A DNA stretch of 60,024 bases, counting the filler. It is 4 parts of 4 records of this genome, joined end to end, with 100 filler letters (N's around TTAATTAATTAA, not from the genome) between each part and the next. Parts side by side here need not be neighbours in the genome. Positions count along the whole stretch, not along the records: positions 51,587 to 60,024 come from DRR723986_17695; 3 more parts are not named here. One strand, 5' to 3'. The position numbers and the translations under genes were made by a program. Under the pieces are notes generated by a model. That model made no database searches, was not told where the DNA came from, and saw only the letters and a list, made by a program, of their open reading frames with translations. Every line of letters starts with the position of its first letter. Positions within the stretch are counted from its first letter, which is position 1. Shown piece by piece: positions 51,587-60,024 of this stretch.

Positions 51587-51812
51587 TATCTTGCTCAGCA
51601 TGCTCACGATGGGGGCTTATCTGTTTCTGCTACCCGCGTCTTGGAAGCTTTGGTTCAACGAATACAACTTCTTGTTCTGGATGGAGTGGATCGCCGTTTG
51701 GGCGTTTGCAACCGCCTGGCTGACTAAGGGGCGAGTAATCGCTGCTGAGATCGCAGTTGAACTGCTTGCGATTCCCCGCGAAGCACTAGCAGAACGATTC
51801 ACCGAGGATTAG
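51587..51812 (+). CDS. C-terminus of a membrane protein (5'-truncated)
   Basis: Hydrophobic segments ending FWMEWIAVWAFATAWLTKG. Confidence 0.55.
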
Positions 51813-51982
51813 CAGAAGCGTGCCGGATCAAGCGAAGCAACGGTGGCCACAACGAGGAGCGGAGCGACGGCAATCTATCCGTTGAAGCTTCTGCTGCACA
51901 CAATTGATATCGACGACCAAGTACCGGAACTGAGTCAAGCTCAATCTGGCCTACCCGACGCCGATGCAAGACGTCGCACTTT

Positions 51983-52393
51983 TCATGCTGCGATGTCATG
52001 GCTGACCGAGTCCAAGACTAACTGGAAAGCGTCGTTTAGCGATAGTTCATTGACGACCATCAAGTCGAACACCTGCAGCAAGCACTGATCCACCAACAGT
52101 TGTTCACTCACGAAAGCAAATTCGAGTCCACTTCTTCGAACAAGCTCGGCCTCAAGTGCTGGACGTATATCGACCACACCGCACTCGAAACATGCATAGT
52201 TGAGCTCGCATTGCGCCTTTTTAATCCACCGCCATTTAATTGGCTGCTCGTCGAGCCAGCTCACGCGCAATTGACCGAGCGGATTATCACGGACACGTGG
52301 TGAGATCTTTTTCAGCTTACCGGTTCGGGGGTAAGCCCTATCAATTCGCTCAACTAAGGGAACTGACGAAGTGATCGGGGACACAACGCTCAT
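51983..52393 (-). CDS. Hypothetical protein
   Basis: 136-codon ORF with a GGAG RBS; no family recognised. Confidence 0.45.
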   Translation of the reverse strand: MSVVSPITSSVPLVERIDRAYPRTGKLKKISPRVRDNPLGQLRVSWLDEQPIKWRWIKKAQCELNYACFECGVVDIRPALEAELVRRSGLEFAFVSEQLLVDQCLLQVFDLMVVNELSLNDAFQLVLDSVSHDIAA

Positions 52394-52710
52394 AGCAATA
52401 CTCCAATCTGCGTTACTAATTGAATTGAAAAACACGGGCTGCTACGCAGAGCAAAATCTGTGCCGGCGGGGACATAAGCCCGCGGACGTCGCTGACACAG
52501 TCGCTTCCATCGGTTCCATCCATGTCCCTAGTGCCTTCAGCTAACATCTGCCGACTGGCGGCGTTGTTTGACTGCGGGACGCGACGGAGTCTCCACCTTC
52601 TCAACTATTCCGTGATTCTACGCCCTGATCGGCACGCCATGTGCTTTCTTGAGAGCCGTTGCAGCGTTGGGGTTATGCGACGTTAGCTATTTGGGGTCCA
52701 GCGCCAAGAA

Positions 52711-52944
52711 ATGAGATCATCGGAACAGGAGCAGTTTGTGGCAGGTCCAGAACACACAACAATTTTTGACGTCGGAGACAGGAAGCATATTTGCAAGGTT
52801 CTTTACCTCGTGCCCCTTGCGCAAGGGCAGGTCGTGGATTTACCGAACGAGCCGTCCTACATTGTCGAAGCGGTGCATCTAAGAATTGATTCCAAGGGCT
52901 GCTGCGAGCAAAGAGTATCACTCGGCCGTCGCGGGGCCTGCTGA
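52711..52944 (+). CDS. Small hypothetical protein
   Basis: 77-aa ORF upstream of the epimerase; no motif recognised. Confidence 0.3.
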   Translation: MRSSEQEQFVAGPEHTTIFDVGDRKHICKVLYLVPLAQGQVVDLPNEPSYIVEAVHLRIDSKGCCEQRVSLGRRGAC

Positions 52945-52995
52945 GGGTTCTGAGACGCGCAATTCTTCGCTGGTTCCGAGACAGAGTATCCCGTA

Positions 52996-53712
52996 ATGAT
53001 CTTAGTAACTGGAAGTACAGGTTTGCTCGGCAACACGATTGTGCGACAGTTGCTGAGCGAAGGCCGCGCAGTACGAGCGTTTGTTAGGCCGACGTCAGAA
53101 TTGACGCCGCTGGCCGGTTTGGGTGTAGAGATATTGAAAGGGAGCCTTACATCAGTCGCCGACGTGCGTCATGCAGTCCAGGGTTGCGAGGCCGTCATTC
53201 ACTGTGCCGCGATGATTCACCTTGGCCGCACCAAGTTGCACGAAGCTCGCGAGGCCAATGTGTCAACGACGAAGCTGCTAGCAAACGAGCGTTCTCGCAC
53301 CGGTGCGAGGATGGTGTTTGTCTCAACTGTGAATGCTCTGGATGCGGCGCACAGTCTTGAGATGCCGCTAAACGAGCGAGAAAACGGGGTGAAGATGACA
53401 CCTTGTACTTATGTCATTACGAAACGCGAAGCAGAAGCAGTTATCTGCAGCCTTGCTTCGTGTATGCAGCTTGATTTTATAATCGTTCGGCGGGGATTCA
53501 TGCTCGGGCCTCACGATTGGAAGCCGTCCAGCGGTCGAATGTTTCGCAGTGTTGTCAGGTCACCGATCGTCGCGGCTCCACTTGGCGCTTGCAGCGTATG
53601 TCACACTCGCGATGTTGCTGAGCACCGTACAGGTGCGATTCCAGACAAATTCGAAGACGTGACCGGTCAGAGAGGGGATGAACGTCCGAAAGGGAAGATC
53701 AGGTCGAAGTAG
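52996..53712 (+). pseudogene. NAD-dependent epimerase/dehydratase (dihydroflavonol reductase/HpnA-like), probably C-terminally truncated
   Basis: GSTGLLG, VIHCAA, YVITK and LGPHD present; resemblance ends after CHTRDVA at about aa 210, versus roughly 330 aa for the family. Confidence 0.6.
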
Positions 53713-54416
53713 TCCAGACAGCAAAGCGCACCATAGTTCCCGTTGCTGTTTGCTGACCCAAGATCGCGATGCGACAGTATGCAGGCAAGTGTCGAACTTC
53801 CTCCTCGCGAATTCAGCTAGAAGCAGCATTTTGCAAACCCGTCGGAGTCATCCTGCGGATGGTGATATCCTAGACGGTAGCCTGACAAAGAGTCGACAAA
53901 GAAAGTATCGCCAAAGACAAACATGCCGCAAAGCCTTGGCATCTCGAAAAGAGAAGTCGGTCGACGAGGAACCGTTCCGACATCGCAATCGGCCTGGCGT
54001 ACTTCCCGTATGGAAGTCCGGTGAGGCCAATCCATAGTTCACGCAGAGCACTCTAGGACCTGCGCGGAAGCGTCGATCTTGCGACCGCACCACAGGCATC
54101 TGCTCAGCGCTCCGAGCTCATCGGCTGGAGACGACTCGATCTGTCAAGCGCAGACGCAAATCTCGTATTGCCTCGGTCAGATTTCCGATCAAAGCGTCAG
54201 AACCAACAATTCCTAAGCACTCCTTAGAAAGCTCACGATAGCTCTCAACAACAACTCGCTGCAATTGCTCACCTCTGAGCAGTGGGCGATAAGAACGTGG
54301 TCATCAGATCTAAACACGGACACATCAAGATGACAGTGTTTTTGCGATTCGCTATTGTCCATCGGCACTGCTCAGTTTCTCTACCCTCGAGTATCCGAAA
54401 TGAGCCGTAGTCTAAC

Positions 54417-55106
54417 TTAAGGCACAATGCTGGGTCTTGGGCTTGCTGCTGTCCGGATAATATGCCTGTTCAAATATCCTTTATGGATGTCCTCGGCGGT
54501 TAGACCAAGCTTTGAATTTGGTGAAGAAGTCTGGCCCGGTGGGGCGACCACGAGCACTGCGTTTCTCTGCCATGCCGTTTGGAAACACTGAGCCGTCATG
54601 CGGGTGTTGCCACGAAATGGATCTGCAAGGTAGACGACCCCCAAATGGTCATCGCGATAAACCACAAAGTGGTTAATGCCTTCGAGTTTGACGACCAGGA
54701 TCAGGGGAACCTTACTTTTGGTCAGTTTAGCGTACGTCAGTTCGCCGACGGTCGCGTTATATCCCATTTTTTTCGCGGCATCTTCAACGTCAGCAATGGT
54801 CAGTCCATCGGCCTCCCTATCGGCCAATTGTTCCTCGCTGAGCATTGTCTCTACTACACTAAGAACATCAGCCTCAGATACATCATGGCGCCAGTGGTAA
54901 CGCAGAAGAGTTGCCAGAGCAGCGGCACCACATGAGTAGTCTCGCTGCTGCATCACGACATTGTTTTCCCTGAGCTCTTTCCAGCTCAAGACTGGTTTCG
55001 ACATCCTGAACGAAGTGTCACGTACGCGTCCTCCCCTCGGCAGTTCTTGGGAGTAACACAGACCAGCAAGTGATGTGGCAATGTAAATAGCTAAGAGTCG
55101 TTGCAT
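54417..55106 (-). CDS. Stand-alone exported C39 cysteine peptidase, FapD-like
   Basis: Signal peptide; PVLSWKELR, QQRDYSCGAAALATLL (Cys), NHFVV (His) and LADPFRGN (Asp); no ABC domain. Confidence 0.88.
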   Translation of the reverse strand: MQRLLAIYIATSLAGLCYSQELPRGGRVRDTSFRMSKPVLSWKELRENNVVMQQRDYSCGAAALATLLRYHWRHDVSEADVLSVVETMLSEEQLADREADGLTIADVEDAAKKMGYNATVGELTYAKLTKSKVPLILVVKLEGINHFVVYRDDHLGVVYLADPFRGNTRMTAQCFQTAWQRNAVLVVAPPGQTSSPNSKLGLTAEDIHKGYLNRHIIRTAASPRPSIVP

Positions 55107-55116
55107 CGTCTTCTCC

Positions 55117-56202
55117 TTACCGTGTCCAGACTATTCCAAGCTCGCTCGACGGTGCAGTTTCAGTCAGTCCAAAGGTTACAAATGGCTCTACAATTTTACA
55201 TCGTTCTGCGATCGTAGCCGCCAACCGGACGCGCAGTGGCTCTTGGTCACTGTTGGAAAGGTTTATCCCTTCAATTTCCGTTTCGGTGATGTACGCCCCA
55301 AGAAAAGCGGTACTCAGTGTTACATGCCGGTTCACCGCGAAACCAACTCCGAAGTTGTAGTTAAGCTGGTGTCCCAGCTGAATGCGTATGTCCTGGTAGT
55401 CATCTGGCACACTGTAGATGTAACCAAGTCCGTAGAAGAGAACGACTGGGTCGATCGAACGCACTCGGAGCACGTCGGTACCGAACCGCCAAGAACCGTT
55501 GCCAAGGCCAACACTGTTTATCACAAGCGGATTTACCGGGGTGCCAGTTGGAGCGATCGCACGCATCGTCACGATTGTTGACGTACCGGTGCAAGAGTCC
55601 TGGTCGACTAGCTTCGTAACGCCAAACGTCAGGTCTCCCACCCCAACATCAGACCGGCTCTCATCACCAAACGCAGTGGCGATTTCGGTATCTGCCCAAC
55701 CAAGTGGTAGCGACGCAAATAACTGCGTCTTTTCGTTCCAGCCATAGCGCCAGCTGAGAGGCGTGAAAAAAGATCGGCGGCGTGAGTCAGCTCGCACAAG
55801 ATTCCCGCCAACAACCGCTGGGAAGTCGTATTCCTGAAGCGAGTAAACTATGCCGTAGTCAAACTGGTGCTGGCCAGCGGTCAACAGTGGCGTAACAGAC
55901 CTCAAGAATTGAGGGCCCACCTCTTCCGGCGCCTCGCCGTAGTTCTCCGCGGGCTCCGACGCACCACGGACATCGATCGCACTTGGTCCGATGGTGTCAG
56001 CAATGGTGTTGGGGGCTCTAGGCTCAGCGGGCTTTTGGAGCAGTGGGGAGAAAAAATTAGGGCGAACGCTCTTCGTTTCATCGGGCAGTGCCTGCGCGAT
56101 TGCCTTACCTGCGGGCGTTGCTGCGAGAATGAAAAAAACACATACTTGAATATTAAGAATACTGCGATGCGTACGTAGTACGGTTGAAAACAGACCGTCC
56201 AT
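55117..56202 (-). CDS. Outer-membrane beta-barrel, FapF/COG4313-like
   Basis: Signal-like N-terminus, amphipathic strands, RYG, GVGDLTFG, APTG..P, GLGNGSW, SIDPVVLFYGLGY and GVGFAVN, as seen in FapF-type barrels. Confidence 0.75.
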   Translation of the reverse strand: MDGLFSTVLRTHRSILNIQVCVFFILAATPAGKAIAQALPDETKSVRPNFFSPLLQKPAEPRAPNTIADTIGPSAIDVRGASEPAENYGEAPEEVGPQFLRSVTPLLTAGQHQFDYGIVYSLQEYDFPAVVGGNLVRADSRRRSFFTPLSWRYGWNEKTQLFASLPLGWADTEIATAFGDESRSDVGVGDLTFGVTKLVDQDSCTGTSTIVTMRAIAPTGTPVNPLVINSVGLGNGSWRFGTDVLRVRSIDPVVLFYGLGYIYSVPDDYQDIRIQLGHQLNYNFGVGFAVNRHVTLSTAFLGAYITETEIEGINLSNSDQEPLRVRLAATIAERCKIVEPFVTFGLTETAPSSELGIVWTR

Positions 56203-56292
56203 GGTCGTTGTTCCTCTTGGGCGTGACTGGGTGAAGAAGGTCGCGCAGCGTTTGCGGCTACGCGACCAGTTCGTTCTTCGAATCCCAATAGC

Positions 56293-57288
56293 TTAGAACG
56301 CAAATCCTGTCATGACCGAGAAGCCGATTAAATGCGTTTCAAGCTCACCACCGACTGCGTTGGTAACACCTACAGAATTTCCGAAGGTACCAGACGCAGC
56401 TTGGGCGATCGCGCTCCCATCGTTCGTGTCCCAATACTGGAATTCAACTCCAGCTCGTGCAAATGCTCGGCCATTGAAGCTGTCTACGCATTTTGACCAT
56501 TGCAGACCAGCACCAGCTTCCCCGATGAACATCGTCTCATCCTGTTGATCGATTGCCCCGTTCACGCTGCCAGCTGTTCCGAACGGACCAGAGAAATTTG
56601 AAATTGCTATGGCGCTCGTTTCGGCAGAGCCGAAGACTGTCGAACCTCGGGTGTTCCAGTAAGCACTAAGGCCGCTGCATGGGCGTAGGCACTTCAAGCC
56701 AGAGAGGCTAAACGTTAGTCCCGTCCCGTGAAATTCTTCACTGTTGATCGTACTCAGATTAAAAACGTCGCCATTGATCGCTCCGTAGGCCGACGCTGTT
56801 CGGTCATGATCGATTGAAGCGTGACGCACACCGAAAGTCCCGAGCAGATCCCAATCGCCTTGACGAAACTGTTTGGTCAGTTCCAAATCAATTGCGTAAG
56901 CATTGAATGAGTCTATCCCACCTAGCTCCTGCAGCTGGTTTCCAACGATCGGCGCAGGAAAGCCCTGTTGTGCTGCCTGACTCGAAAGCTCCCAGTATCG
57001 AGCCTGAATTCCAAACCCGGACTGCCTTTGCCAACCGAATGAGATTCGGGGCGCTGCAGTAAGTAGTTCAGCCGTGTCGAAAGTTGAGCCCAGTGAGATA
57101 GGGGCTGCGGCGGCCCCGGCGAGTTGGAAGCTTGAAGGAGCAACGTCGTACAGCGGAGCTAAATAAGTTGCTTCAACCCCAGCGTAGAAAGTGGAACACT
57201 GAGGGCGGCTGGTTAGGCACTGGGCGGGCAGTGCGGATGTCGACGATAGAATCGTGGCGAGCGTTAACAGAAAGATCAGGCGTTTCAT
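56293..57288 (-). CDS. Planctomycete-type outer-membrane beta-barrel (BBP7/Lpg1974-like)
   Basis: Signal peptide MKRLIFLLTLATILSSTSALPA; FYAGVEATYL, PRISFGW, GIQARYW and GVEFQYW; C-terminal Phe. Confidence 0.7.
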   Translation of the reverse strand: MKRLIFLLTLATILSSTSALPAQCLTSRPQCSTFYAGVEATYLAPLYDVAPSSFQLAGAAAAPISLGSTFDTAELLTAAPRISFGWQRQSGFGIQARYWELSSQAAQQGFPAPIVGNQLQELGGIDSFNAYAIDLELTKQFRQGDWDLLGTFGVRHASIDHDRTASAYGAINGDVFNLSTINSEEFHGTGLTFSLSGLKCLRPCSGLSAYWNTRGSTVFGSAETSAIAISNFSGPFGTAGSVNGAIDQQDETMFIGEAGAGLQWSKCVDSFNGRAFARAGVEFQYWDTNDGSAIAQAASGTFGNSVGVTNAVGGELETHLIGFSVMTGFAF

Positions 57289-57466
57289 TTTCGTTCTCAA
57301 TCCTTGAGAGGCGTATTCGTCAGAATGGTATCCTTTCACACATCCTGAGGGGCCGCATCAAGGCGATCCCCGTGAGGCTTTTCGCCCCTCACAACAGAAG
57401 CAGTTCGGTAAACCGCAAAGAGGCAAGACATTCCGGTAAACCCGTACGATCGTCGCTACTACATTC

Positions 57467-57482
57467 GCTCCCCCCGTGCCAA
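57467..57482 (-). promoter_or_regulatory. Possible sigma-54 -24/-12 promoter for the barrel/peptidase genes
   Basis: Minus strand TTGGCACG-GGGG-GAGC has exact GG-N10-GC spacing; the -12 box deviates from TTGC. Confidence 0.35.
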
Positions 57483-57490
57483 AGCATTGA

Positions 57491-57522
57491 AAAAGGGTGC
57501 TCTGTTCACACAGAGCACCCTT
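57491..57522 (-). terminator. Intrinsic terminator after the small secreted-protein gene
   Basis: 13-bp perfect stem AAGGGTGCTCTGT/ACAGAGCACCCTT ending in a T-run on the minus strand. Confidence 0.8.
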
Positions 57523-57556
57523 CGAATTGACGGTTTAAACGCTTAGGGAAGCTTTC

Positions 57557-57928
57557 CTAGAATCCACCGGCGAATGAGAAACCAGTACCGTAAACGAACG
57601 GCCCAGGGCCATTGGCTCCAGCGAAAGAAAATCCTCCCGAAAACGTCGGGTTGTTCGCAAAGTAACCATTTACGCTGCCGGAATTGTTGAAGAAGCCGTT
57701 GAACCTGGCATAGGAAACACCGAACACAATCGCTCCCTGGCCACGTACCTCAACGCTGTCTTCGCGTTCCATGACCTTCATACCGCTGAGGCCCATCGCG
57801 CTTAGCGAACTTTGGCTTACAGATTCGCCTGATGCAGCAGTGCGGAATGGATCCGCTGCTTTTGCAGATCCAACACTGGCAACTGACAGGACTGCAATCG
57901 CACATAGAGTTGTAACGATTCTCGACAT
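57557..57928 (-). CDS. Small secreted Gly/Phe/Asn/Ser-rich pre-pro-protein (candidate fibre subunit or peptide)
   Basis: Sec signal ending SAKA, pro-segment ending MEREDSVEVRGQG, then a 58-aa low-charge core containing GFSFAG twice. Confidence 0.75.
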   Translation of the reverse strand: MSRIVTTLCAIAVLSVASVGSAKAADPFRTAASGESVSQSSLSAMGLSGMKVMEREDSVEVRGQGAIVFGVSYARFNGFFNNSGSVNGYFANNPTFSGGFSFAGANGPGPFVYGTGFSFAGGF

Positions 57929-58599
57929 AGTTGTTTTCCCTGTTGTGGAGAACTCGGACGTAATTGCGAGGGACGGGCGTCTCTCGCCTCTCGGAACCGA
58001 TTAAACCCACAAATTGGAAGTAGTCAAACTAATTCCACCTATTTTCTGTGGAAACTACCCACGTCCCCCAAACAACCACGCACCAGTGAGCTAGTCACGC
58101 CCCCCCAACTATTCGCAGCTTGAATACATGCCCTTGAGATAGCGTGCCGCCTGAACGCCGTGAGATCTTGGTTGGTAGCCGTTCCAGGGACTGAAAAGAG
58201 CTTTGTCCACTCGGAGATCGCTTTAGAGCATTGCAGCGCCTTCTTCAGAAGTTATTAGATTCGCTCCATTCGGGTTTCTATTGCAACCCGCCGAATACGA
58301 GGCAGGCACGCATTGCGCGGTCAAGGCTGTTGGCGAGATCCAAAAACTCGCAACAGGCTAGACACCACTGCAACGGAAAGATCTAGGCCTTTTTGCTACG
58401 GATTCAGACCTGCGTGAAAGACTGGTCGGACTGTAGCGCGCTAAGTCGAAGGCGCAATTCGGCAGCGATGCCGAATGGCAAGTAGATTTCGAGGAAAAAT
58501 CACTCTCGTACTTCGGGTAGCAAGTTAGTCCGCGCCGTTTTCTTGGCAGCACGATCGGCACCGGTGTTTACGGGGAGACAGCCAGCGGCCGTCAGCGTC

Positions 58600-59883
58600 T
58601 TATCCGATCTGTTTGATGACATCCCTAGCTCTTTCCGCATCGCGTTCGGCATATACCTGTGTGACGTCTGCGGCAGCGTGCCCAAGTATGACCTGTGCAG
58701 CTTCAAGACCGAAGTCGCGACGGATGATCGTAGCTGCAGTATGGCGTAACTGGTTGGGGGACCATCGATGCGTCGATTGCCATACCTTTACAGCTTTCAC
58801 GCCAGAATCACCAATTCTGGCGAACCATTCCTTTTGCGTCTCACCGACTCCTTGAGCGAGTGGACCTAGTGGTGGGAATGCACGGTCGCAGGCGCGGTGT
58901 ACGGCGCGTCGATAGCTGCTCGAGTTGTAGGAATCGCTTGGAGGCCGCTCACGGCTCTTGCCGCGGCTCTTGCCTCGCCGGTTTCCGCAGGACAGTGGCG
59001 TGACACGTTTTTCCTCCTTGGCATGCAGCCAGTCTCGAACGTTTTCCTGCGGAGAAAAACAGTGGGCATTCTCATCCCGCTGCAAATAGGGTGTCAGCAA
59101 TGCCTGAGCGTCTGGACCAAGAAAGATGATTCTGTCGCGACCGCGGTAGTCCGTCTTGTGCGTGGCTGGTCGGTATTCCCAAACATCGCAAGGACGATCG
59201 ACATCGACCGGTCGGAGCCTGCATACTTCACCGGGTCGCATCCCAGTCAAAAGCTGGAGCCTGACCATATCCTGAACTATGGGCAATAGATGCAACATAG
59301 TTTGCTGGACGATTTCCACGGAAATCGGCCGAACTGGATCGGGCTCAGATGCCTCACTGCGACCCTTGCGAAGTCCCGGGACAGTCCGTAGTGTTTCGAA
59401 AATGCTCGAAGGAATAAGCTCTTCTGCAGCTGCCCACCTGAAGATACGGACAAGTTTCCGAACGTTGTTGTTAATCGTCGTACGTTTCTGCCCTCGGTCT
59501 AGCCAGGTTTGCCGAACAGCCTTCAAAGCCTTAGGACCGAACCCAGCAGCTTCAACGTCACCATAAAGCTGCCGAACGTCGCGGATTATGACTCGGTACG
59601 CGGCATTTTCGGTAGTCGGTTGGCCATTCTTGACGTAATAGGCTTTGGCGTGCTTCCAGAATGCGGCTAGGACCTCGACAACGGTAATCCCAGCCTCTTG
59701 CTCAAGCACCGAGGCCCTTCTCCCTGACGACAGATACTCGGCAATTAGCCGGTCATAAAGCATTCGACTCGCCTTCGAGCCAAACTTACCAAGATAGTGA
59801 TCGCGACCGGCCAGCGTGACAATTGCTTGTCCGCTGGCTCGGTGACGGCGATACTTCGGAACGGCCTGCGTAAGTCGCGGCAT
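58600..59883 (-). CDS. Tyrosine integrase (Planctomycete type)
   Basis: PKYRRHRASGQA N-terminus; TGMRPGE, HKT, NQLRH, LGH and TQVY. Confidence 0.92.
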   Translation of the reverse strand: MPRLTQAVPKYRRHRASGQAIVTLAGRDHYLGKFGSKASRMLYDRLIAEYLSSGRRASVLEQEAGITVVEVLAAFWKHAKAYYVKNGQPTTENAAYRVIIRDVRQLYGDVEAAGFGPKALKAVRQTWLDRGQKRTTINNNVRKLVRIFRWAAAEELIPSSIFETLRTVPGLRKGRSEASEPDPVRPISVEIVQQTMLHLLPIVQDMVRLQLLTGMRPGEVCRLRPVDVDRPCDVWEYRPATHKTDYRGRDRIIFLGPDAQALLTPYLQRDENAHCFSPQENVRDWLHAKEEKRVTPLSCGNRRGKSRGKSRERPPSDSYNSSSYRRAVHRACDRAFPPLGPLAQGVGETQKEWFARIGDSGVKAVKVWQSTHRWSPNQLRHTAATIIRRDFGLEAAQVILGHAAADVTQVYAERDAERARDVIKQIG

Positions 59884-59996
59884 GTGCTGGTCCTCCCCAA
59901 AACGGTAAGTACCGTTTTGATAATGTGGGAAAACGCCGCACTGCTCACCACGAGCAGGTATCGTAAATGCCGATTCGGCTTCAATTTAGGAAAAAG

Positions 59997-60024
59997 TCGG
60001 GGTGATAGGATTCGAACCTACGAC
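59997..60024 (-). tRNA. 3' part of tRNA-Pro (truncated at the window end); probable integration site
   Basis: Minus strand GTCGTAGGTTCGAATCCTATCACCCCGA gives a T-arm plus an acceptor strand typical of tRNA-Pro; the anticodon is outside the window. Confidence 0.8.

Follow-up and report, generated by a model that had tools for sequence, protein, structure and literature searches.

The window analysed here is a stretch of 60,024 nucleotides composed of four parts of genomic records joined end to end, and its last part (positions 51,587 to 60,024, record DRR723986_17695) carries on the minus strand an operon in which a small gene at 57557..57928 is accompanied by genes for a periplasmic C39 cysteine peptidase, a FapF-type outer-membrane pore and a further putative outer-membrane protein. 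The small gene encodes a secreted planctomycete protein in which a Sec signal, a pro-segment of the double-glycine type and a core rich in glycine and phenylalanine follow one another, and the comparisons presented below suggest that it is the cargo of a two-step secretion system of the FapD/FapF type. The gene and its segments are laid out as follows:

57557..57928, minus strand: small cargo gene, ATG start, 123 residues (from the listing of open reading frames, ORFs)
57857..57928, minus strand: Sec signal, residues 1-24 (MSRIVTTLCAIAVLSVASVGSAKA), with a predicted signal-peptidase site between AKA and A
57737..57856, minus strand: leader or pro-segment, residues 25-64, ADPF...SLSAMGLSGMKVMEREDSVEVRGQ, of the double-glycine type with R at -3, G at -2 and Q at -1
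57557..57736, minus strand: core, residues 65-123 plus the stop codon, the presumed mature product of 59 residues with GGF at its end

Residues 1-24 read as a typical Sec signal, with MSR, a hydrophobic stretch and AKA before the cut at A; A22, A24 and P27 are nearly invariant among the 19 family members compared, and a helix is predicted by AlphaFold2 at residues 2-17. The pro-segment, translated as ADPFRTAASGESVSQSSLSAMGLSGMKVMEREDSVEVRGQ (40 residues), has VRGQ at its C-terminus, and the core, GAIVFGVSYARFNGFFNNSGSVNGYFANNPTFSGGFSFAGANGPGPFVYGTGFSFAGGF, starts with GAIVFG and ends with FAGGF. The original prediction had described a small secreted protein at 57557-57928 with a signal of 24 residues, and the same ORF, with the sequence as quoted there, was found; its description of a core with one charged residue and GFSFAG twice is borne out by the translation, in which the charged residue is R75 and the two motifs lie at residues 99-104 and 116-121. 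The register it had given for MEREDSVEVRGQ was likewise recovered, with M53 at -12, D57 at -8, S58 at -7, V61 at -4, G63 at -2 and Q64 at -1. The order of the segments stands, but the lengths given for the pro-segment and core, 41 and 58 residues, do not: with Q64 at -1 they become 40 and 59, and the core begins at G65. No Pfam family was found for the small protein at an expectation (E) value of 1 or below, and a Foldseek comparison of the monomer model with the PDB returned nothing usable (best E 0.9).

Beyond the stop codon of the small gene the operon contains the following features:

57487..57523, minus strand: hairpin resembling a terminator, with a perfect stem of 14 bp and then UUUUUCAAU (U-run), 34 nt past the stop codon of the small gene
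56293..57339, minus strand: secreted protein of 348 residues, putative outer-membrane beta-barrel, ending in ...TGFAF, of no curated family
55117..56202, minus strand: FapF-type outer-membrane pore, 361 residues (NCBIfam FapF NF058560, Pfam Phenol_MetA_deg)
54417..55106, minus strand: periplasmic FapD-type C39 cysteine peptidase, 229 residues, with its own signal peptide (Pfam PF03412 and NCBIfam FapD)

The neighbouring C39 peptidase of the original prediction is real, matching Pfam Peptidase_C39 (PF03412) with an E value of 1.4e-19. Its best NCBIfam match is FapD (NF058616, E 1.4e-25), at 89.9 bits against a cut-off of 330, with FilB second (E 1.6e-20), and on this comparison it is a homologue of FapD and not an equivalog; its closest match in the PDB is the ComA peptidase domain 3k8u. 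Judged from sequence it is catalytically intact, with Q53, C59, H146 and D162 invariant in 10 peptidase homologues. The pore, which was absent from the original account, matches the FapF model with an E value of 6.7e-12 and 44.9 bits against an equivalog cut-off of 700 bits, with FilC second (E 1.3e-3), and the only PDB chains matched by a profile of eight pore homologues are those of FapF (5o65, 5o67 and 5o68; E 1.2e-26 to 3.5e-25), over the barrel. The FapF model covers pore residues 149-354 only, and the N-terminal ~90 residues are poorly conserved among the eight homologues; in FapF itself the N-terminal part forms a periplasmic coiled coil. A leader-like stretch within this N-terminal region, SAIDVRGASEP (residues about 70-80, window positions 55900-56000), is not conserved in seven homologues and was set aside as a chance resemblance.

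The 348-residue protein reaches 24.1 bits with Pfam Legionella_OMP (E 2e-5), under the cut-off of 25.4; it has no NCBIfam match, and three of its homologues have no Pfam match. The hairpin has a predicted minimum free energy of -34.1 kcal/mol (z = -3.1), with none of 200 shuffled sequences folding as well, and it was not picked up by a simple consensus terminator scan. No ATP-binding cassette (ABC) transporter was found among the operon genes scanned with Pfam and NCBIfam, no other leader-bearing or repeat protein occurs in the operon, and no regulator, holin or immunity genes were seen at the window locus.

The leader family, its cores and its gene neighbours

The first homologues of the small protein came from a word-indexed search (7) and from a pattern scan of genomes (9 loci), and its neighbours in the ESM Atlas are unannotated clusters, commonly of Planctomycetota. 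The leaders of the window and these loci, 13 in all, align over 39 columns without a gap, with L42, G46, L47, R62 and G63 invariant. A profile of these 39 columns matched 786 protein clusters at E<=1e-3, 29 of them at E<=1e-10, among 1.84 billion representatives, and the 150 matches listed are mostly proteins of 90-150 residues in which the matched part lies directly behind a signal peptide. The family statistics given here refer to the 150 proteins, out of 153 collected, that carry the motif as defined by a loose regular expression, and the observed logo is far tighter than that expression. With positions numbered as if cleavage follows the variable residue (-1), the logo comprises L-23 (149 of 150), M-20, G-19 (150), L-18 (147), G-16, M-15, M-12, S-11 and D-10, and, nearer to the site, Q/E-8, G/A-7, V/I-4 (149), R-3 (150) and G-2 (150). 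The residue at -1 is Met in 46 proteins, Gln in 45, Lys in 30, Thr and Ser in 8 each and Glu in 5, that at +1 is Gly in 117 or Phe in 22, and the information content is low thereafter. Comparison thus made of the pro-segment identifies it as a real, conserved leader, far beyond chance. The original prediction had proposed a search for a conserved leader with variable cores; the leader profile reached the 786 clusters, and the same leader stands on very different cores.

Double-glycine leaders form a helix that ends just before the cleavage site, and in the AlphaFold2 model of the small protein, made from a 19-sequence alignment, a helix occupies residues 55-62 and stops right before G63. The double-glycine consensus is given as LSxxELxxIxGG in a table of PMC1538908, and the positions -12 (M), -11 (S), -8 (E/Q), -4 (V/I) and -2 (G, 150 of 150) of the family agree with it; the residues of the window leader to be set against this consensus are M53, E54, D57, S58, V61, G63 and Q64.

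The core of the window protein is composed of G14, F12, N7, A6 and S6, and 81% of it is G/S/N/A/F/Y, with R75 as its sole charged residue. Strands are placed by AlphaFold2 at residues 66-77, 82-93, 96-105 and 112-121, with a predicted local distance difference test (pLDDT) score of 77-80 for this block and a mean of 71 for the whole monomer, and with moderate confidence the predicted core may be described as a four-strand beta-meander. One face of the predicted sheet is aromatic (F96, F100, F102, Y113, F117 and F119) and the other is formed by Gly, Ser and Ala. Across the 150 proteins the core has a median length of 64.5 residues (interquartile range 58-73), contains G at 17.8%, A at 14.1% and S at 11.9%, and has a median charged fraction of 7%; net charge is +5 or above in 19 of the 150, and the last residue is F/Y/W in 50 and R/K/H in 63. 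Many cores, that of the window included, share the layout GAIVWG.S.A ... NGY.A ... AGG.N.S.A ... AGGFS.AGGF. There are also His-rich cores (P0064, P0122 and P0145), Pro-rich cores (P0063 and P0151) and Cys-rich cores (P0030, P0077, P0150 and P0130), and Lys/His/Gly-rich cores stand behind the same leader at 8097-8471 of L044 and L045 and at 7018-7437 of L044. Judged from these sequences, small products of more than one kind seem to leave by the leader-based route.

The window protein and its orthologue in L001 share 68% identity in the core and 45% in the leader, with a ratio of nonsynonymous to synonymous substitution rates (dN/dS) of about 0.09 for the core. Over all unsaturated orthologue pairs the core dN/dS ranges from 0.05 to 0.92, below 1 in every case, and the core is conserved to the same degree as the leader; on this measure the cores are under purifying selection. 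A longer relative of 202 residues (L009:7286-7894, plus strand) carries the same leader (...LAAMGLSGMRPVSAAEGQAIRGKG) followed by 5.5 repeats of 23 residues. The period is marked by a BLOSUM62 autocorrelation of 1.01 and 34% identity at offset 23, against an identity of at most 0.16 at other offsets, and the repeats follow the pattern N..S...[IV].QGG..N, which we take to resemble that of curlin repeats. No Pfam match, Curlin_rpt included, was obtained for this relative, its best match by sequence in the PDB is at chance level (E 0.099), and an AlphaFold2 model made without an alignment is uninformative (mean pLDDT 45). Five distant cargo relatives have no Pfam family either.

The association of the small gene with the peptidase and the pore is not confined to the window. 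All of the first nine loci have the C39 gene next to the cargo gene, eight have a FapF-like gene (the ninth is cut off within its C39 gene) and seven a homologue of the 348-residue protein; two of these loci have two cargo genes. When the scan was repeated with a different subgroup of leaders, 17 loci were obtained; all carry the label Planctomycetota, each has one to three tandem cargo genes, and in nine of them all three accessory genes lie at most 7 kb from the cargo. Of the eight without accessory genes, five were followed into their genomes, where exactly one such C39 gene was found each time, in three cases 16-18 kb off on the same contig. A third scan gave six loci, five of them labelled Planctomycetota and one a duplicate; of the five new loci two have the full set, two show no accessory gene up to 8 kb from the cargo, and the last breaks off with its contig. 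The leader-bearing gene of L047 (contig CAXMSB010000399.1, 10.9 kb) is binned to a metagenome-assembled genome of the gammaproteobacterium 'Granulosicoccus', and the other 31 rows of the three scans, in which one locus appears twice, are labelled Planctomycetota or subgroups of it. The placement of L047 is probably a binning error, transfer being less likely.

A profile of the full-length cargo found matches in 3 of 401 sampled Planctomycetota genomes, and a peptidase profile found matches at E<=1e-20 in 2 of the 401, the same two as the credible cargo matches (G001 and G375), in a sample where 8-11 first-look candidates were scored per genome and 'not found' does not equal absent. The third cargo match is weak (E 0.006) and lies inside a frame of 448 residues, and it was discounted. 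In nine Planctomycetaceae loci (L016, L017, L019-L022 and L024-L026; about 6.2-8.9 kb) three tandem leader-bearing genes occur in constant order. In seven of these loci their products measure about 120-131, 120-124 and 102-107 residues and no peptidase or pore gene lies closer than 7 kb; in those of the seven that were checked, both are 16-18 kb away. Such fixed three-gene cargo sets are, by analogy, reminiscent of major and minor fibre subunits. A crude scan for a small hydrophobic, immunity-like ORF within 1.5 kb of the cargo genes came up empty for 15 of 23 loci, and no such ORF is conserved between loci.

Comparison with known export systems

The nearest characterised system is the Fap system of Pseudomonas. 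FapD is periplasmic, its active-site Cys is needed for the secretion of FapC, and its substrate is given as not known in the account of Rouse et al. 2017 (PMC5557850); a 2018 review (PMC6173800) places co-localised fapD-fapF homologues in five further phyla, with no cargo named in that connection, and a 2026 preprint describes FapD only as 'involved in precursor processing'. The window operon resembles this system in its periplasmic C39 peptidase with a Sec signal, for which FapD is the best NCBIfam match, in its barrel of the type of FapF, which has 12 strands, the profile of this barrel finding only FapF structures in the PDB, and in a cargo that would be Sec-exported, unfolded and beta-forming, as far as genes and prediction indicate. 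It differs in several respects. There is no FapA, FapB or FapC gene in the window operon, although the FapB and FapC models do detect the Aeromonas proteins; the peptidase (89.9 against 330 bits) and the pore (44.9 against 700 bits) fall far under the equivalog cut-offs; the pore's N-terminal part lacks conservation and falls outside the match to the FapF model; an extra conserved outer-membrane protein is present; and the cargo is a peptide of 59 residues that is without Asn/Gln-rich repeats and has no match to the FapB, FapC or FapE models at E<=1.

At the level of motif the likeness extends to FapE, a protein that Pseudomonas requires for secretion and that makes up only a minor part of the fibre (PMC5557850). 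According to the same source no peptides from the first ~70 residues were recovered from mature FapE, so that about 45 residues behind the signal are absent from the mature protein, to be compared with the 40-residue pro-segment here. In an Aeromonas locus where FapB, FapC, FapD, FapE and FapF were all identified by NCBIfam, FapE carries ...APELADGELAHLRGRY about 25 residues behind its signal, with D40, L43, R47, G48 and R49 invariant in nine Aeromonas-type sequences, and this motif (...LADGELAHLRGRY) stands at the same place and in the same register as the planctomycete leader. In Polymorphobacter, Photobacterium, Croceicoccus and Cupriavidus the gene directly after the FapD-like gene carries ITDYELATMRGG, LTDDEMSSLRGG, LSEEVLARQRGG or ARLDKQRGG; the Photobacterium protein matches the FapE model over its N-terminal part only (E 0.005). 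Given these leader motifs in proteobacterial neighbours of FapD and that of the planctomycete family, an Arg-Gly at -3/-2 behind a double-glycine helix pattern is, at the level of sequence motifs, common to proteins beside FapD-type peptidases, a parallel of motif only, and the -1 residue across these FapD-adjacent proteins is G, R, K, M or Q.

Some further observations were made on the proteobacterial loci. In five of them (L038:7599-8246; L043:5579-6262; L040:5663-6172; L041:5687-6403; L039:7995-8744) the gene after the peptidase carries a near-textbook double-glycine leader with Arg at -3; Aeromonas FapE (LADGELAHLRGR) is among the five, and the leader may mark the site at which FapD cleaves FapE. 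Small proteins encoded upstream of four proteobacterial FapD-like genes (L043:4583-4897; L040:3813-4148; L041:4594-4989; L039:6345-6884) carry the leader-like VSDAELGKVAGK, LTEAFMTHSRGG and SDKLDGVRGG followed by FapB-like Asn-rich repeats, and none of the four has an NCBIfam match at E<=0.01. The repeats of Aeromonas FapB (L038:5188-5694) begin ALSNIRGSMGVN / ALSQNRGLVGIN, like the leader end ..[VI]RG.G, and the leader might be related by descent to half a Fap repeat, or the likeness might be coincidence.

The second precedent is the nap island of Neisseria, a horizontally acquired island that encodes cationic microcin-like peptides that carry a GG (double-glycine) motif, NapP, which is a C39 peptidase, and NapF, which is a homologue of FapF (Poncin et al. 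2025, PMC11798529). The Nap peptides (NapA-C) promote autolysis, and the holin-like NapH is proposed to serve in crossing the inner membrane (PMC11798529). The likeness lies in small peptides with a double-glycine-type site beside a stand-alone C39 peptidase and a FapF homologue, in an acquired island and with no ABC transporter in the account of Nap, and in a tblastn search the window peptidase matches records of N. gonorrhoeae at 31% identity. The difference lies in the cargo: Nap peptides are described as cationic with a true GG, whereas the window protein has a classical Sec signal, a near-neutral and predicted all-beta core and G-Q. Measured against the Nap type, the C39 and FapF homologues are present, but the cargo does not fit, with only one charged residue in its core and G-Q at the site where Nap peptides have G-G. 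Together the Fap and Nap precedents indicate that modules of the FapD/FapF type export amyloid subunits and bacteriocin-like peptides alike.

Other systems share single elements with the window operon. Double-glycine leaders such as those of class II bacteriocins and microcins, which are cut by the C39 domains of ComA/PCAT-type ABC exporters, match at five positions, the predicted helix lies just before the site and the closest solved peptidase is the ComA domain 3k8u; here, however, the leader lies behind a 24-residue Sec signal and not at the N-terminus, the peptidase is free in the periplasm and not fused to an ABC transporter, and the family has Met/Gln/Lys at -1, a small residue at -7 and an invariant Arg at -3. 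Curli subunits (CsgA and CsgB) are exported by Sec, cross the outer membrane unfolded through a pore of their own (CsgG) and assemble on the far side of it, as is proposed here, but no match to Pfam Curlin_rpt was found here, the pore is of the FapF and not the CsgG type, and curli subunits have no C39-cleaved leader. The Fil 'putative pilus' system of Acinetobacter is alike in that the peptidase matches FilB (E 1.6e-20) and the pore FilC (E 1.3e-3), and it too has a FapD/FapF-type pair with cargo that is not Fap; these matches are weaker than those to FapD and FapF, however, and no chaperone-usher-like or other Fil components were seen here. A literature search for the Acinetobacter Fil genes found no paper.

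Proposed route and alternatives

All steps of the route proposed here rest on sequence and comparison. The small protein would be exported by Sec and cut by signal peptidase after A24. In the periplasm the adjacent C39 peptidase would recognise the 40-residue leader, with its helix ending at R62 and its invariant R-G, and cut beside the R-G. The unfolded core of 59 residues would then leave through the FapF-like outer-membrane barrel and, being near-uncharged and rich in Gly and aromatic residues, would self-assemble outside as an amyloid-like fibre or matrix, which the 348-residue outer-membrane protein possibly anchors or nucleates. The full statement, that of a leader-tagged cargo of a FapD/FapF-type two-step secretion system whose product self-assembles, is given a rough probability of 0.55. 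That the protein is cargo of such an export route is, from the genes and the leader, held with good confidence. The two-step maturation of the original prediction, by signal peptidase and then the C39 peptidase, is strongly supported by comparison, through the family-wide leader in double-glycine register, the intact peptidase, and the linkage and co-occurrence of the genes, and its overall interpretation is supported in part.

Of the two known outcomes of such modules, a fibre on the one hand and toxicity or autolysis on the other, the sequences make a self-assembling amyloid-like fibre subunit the more likely. This is suggested by the neutral all-beta core rich in Gly and aromatic residues, by purifying selection on the core, by the fixed sets of paralogues, by the curlin-like relative with the same leader, by the lack of immunity-like genes and by the extra outer-membrane protein. 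The hairpin after the small gene is counted on the same side, given that such hairpins are common after genes of major subunits. Furthermore, the FapF-type pore places the system next to the Pseudomonas Fap exporter, which makes a self-assembling product more plausible.

A number of points weigh against this account. The residue at -7 is G, A or S and not the Leu of LSxxELxxIxGG, and that at -1 is Met, Gln or Lys in most of the 150 proteins and not Gly, Ala or Ser; to our knowledge Met, Gln or Lys at this position (P1) is unprecedented for characterised C39 peptidases. With such a P1 residue it is uncertain which bond is cut, the one after G63, the one after Q64 or the one after G65: the double-glycine register favours a cut between Q64 and G65, which is judged most likely, and the point where strict invariance ends would favour, with uncertainty, the bond between G63 and Q64. 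When the leader profile is aligned with FapE, RG falls on RG, but the hhalign probability is 0.4% (E 0.14) and the alignment is not significant; ..IRGS.. also occurs inside the repeats of Aeromonas FapB, so that RG is not unique to leaders. The core matches none of the NCBIfam models for FapB, FapC and FapE at E<=1 and no amyloid family fits it, and other cores of the family are His-, Pro- or Cys-rich or Lys-rich and basic, so that no single structural role fits. The co-occurrence in the 401 genomes carries the limit of its sampling given above. Finally, Nap, the only other module of the FapD/FapF type to have been studied, exports bacteriocin-like peptides and not fibres (PMC11798529).

It is therefore necessary to consider, as the main rival and in keeping with the microcin-like alternative of the original prediction, that the mature peptide is itself a membrane-active, bacteriocin-like or autolysis-promoting peptide of the Nap kind, exported without an ABC transporter by way of Sec, the C39 peptidase and the FapF-type pore, and acting on competitors or on the envelope of the producer. 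A conserved leader on very diverse cores, with one to three tandem paralogues per locus, is typical of bacteriocin loci, 19 of the 150 cores have a net charge of +5 or above and one subfamily is Lys/His/Gly-rich, and class II microcins are likewise rich in Gly, Ser and Ala and 60-90 residues long. The nap island, with its GG peptides, NapP and NapF, is also reported as horizontally acquired, like the lower-GC (guanine plus cytosine) island here (PMC11798529). This explanation is nevertheless unlikely: the window core has one charged residue, no hydrophobic stretch of helix length and a predicted all-beta fold, the window lacks an immunity-like small membrane ORF and the loci have no conserved one in common, and the cores are under purifying selection and conserved like the leader between orthologues. 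Moreover, the three paralogue types in constant order in nine Planctomycetaceae loci look like co-assembling subunits, one relative has curlin-like repeats behind the same leader, and the extra conserved outer-membrane protein would have no role.

Two further explanations leave the fibre out in other ways. The small protein may not be freely secreted, its four-strand core instead inserting into, plugging or completing an outer-membrane assembly, for example as a small beta-barrel formed by several copies or as an initiator or adaptor of the pore in the manner of FapE, with the real cargo encoded elsewhere. The predicted sheet, with an aromatic face and a Gly/Ser/Ala face, has the pattern of membrane beta-strands, the terminal Phe is found in many outer-membrane proteins and 50 of the 150 relatives end in F/Y/W, and Pseudomonas FapE is described as needed for secretion and minor in the fibre (PMC5557850). 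This is considered quite improbable given that 63 of the 150 relatives end in R/K/H, that a four-strand unit of 59 residues is short for a subunit of a membrane barrel, that the fold search gave no barrel-like match, and that the operon has no other leader-bearing or repeat protein, the small proteins being the only candidate cargo in many loci, in one to three copies. A similarly low probability is given to the view that the conserved segment is retained as a targeting or chaperone-binding motif, docking on the pore or on the 348-residue protein, and that the C39 peptidase cuts something else or acts as a chaperone. C39-like domains that only bind substrate, without catalysis, are known from type 1 secretion, the residue at P1 is none of Gly, Ala and Ser, and conservation runs past the variable residue (G in 117 and F in 22 of the 150) and does not end at one bond; the possibility of a non-catalytic C39-like domain is also raised in PMC5557850. 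Against it, all 10 peptidases aligned keep the catalytic Gln, Cys, His and Asp, five conserved positions are in the register of cleaved double-glycine leaders, and Fap secretion is reported to require the active-site Cys of FapD (PMC5557850).

Returning to the self-assembling cargo, a broader form of the proposal is put forward only tentatively and is more doubtful than the statement above. It would hold that the family, of at least 786 clusters at 50% identity and essentially restricted to Planctomycetota, consists of leader-tagged beta-peptides which a FapD/FapF-type exporter carries as its only cargo and which polymerise outside the cell into cross-beta fibres of a new class, distinct from both Fap and curli and perhaps among the surface fibres of planctomycetes. 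It would further hold that every periplasmic C39 peptidase of the FapD type recognises its substrate by the leader logo (phi-12, S-11, D-10, E-8, V/I-4, R-3, G-2 and a long unbranched residue at -1), and that this applies also to a cut of Pseudomonas and Aeromonas FapE beside its invariant R-G.

A literature search on FapF, C39 and amyloid in Planctomycetota found nothing relevant in print. What is new here is a very small and very numerous cargo family, a leader that has Arg at -3 without exception and a residue other than Gly at -1, a third outer-membrane component, and the phylum. Peptidases of the FapD type are described as essential for Fap export, with substrate and cleavage site still sought in these accounts (PMC5557850, PMC6173800), and hundreds of presumed natural substrates that share one ungapped leader offer a precise recognition motif (Arg-3, non-Gly -1). 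The ABC-free FapD/FapF two-step route would be extended to Planctomycetota, with a very small cargo and a third outer-membrane component, and the cargo family bears on a phylum whose envelope and surface fibres are poorly understood.

Genomic setting of the operon

Upstream of the operon lies one further gene:

58600..59883, minus strand: tyrosine integrase, Pfam Phage_integrase (E 3e-11)

The GC content is about 59-63% up to about 51.5 kb and about 52-55% from there to the end of the window, within which no transfer RNA gene was found. This low-GC segment with its integrase is, from its composition and gene content, probably a genomic island with decayed genes whose far border lies beyond the window, and given that the segment is of lower GC and flanked by an integrase, the operon was probably acquired horizontally. 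Few long ORFs occur in the low-GC stretch at about 51.8-54.4 kb, which includes an epimerase-like ORF of 238 residues at 52996-53712.

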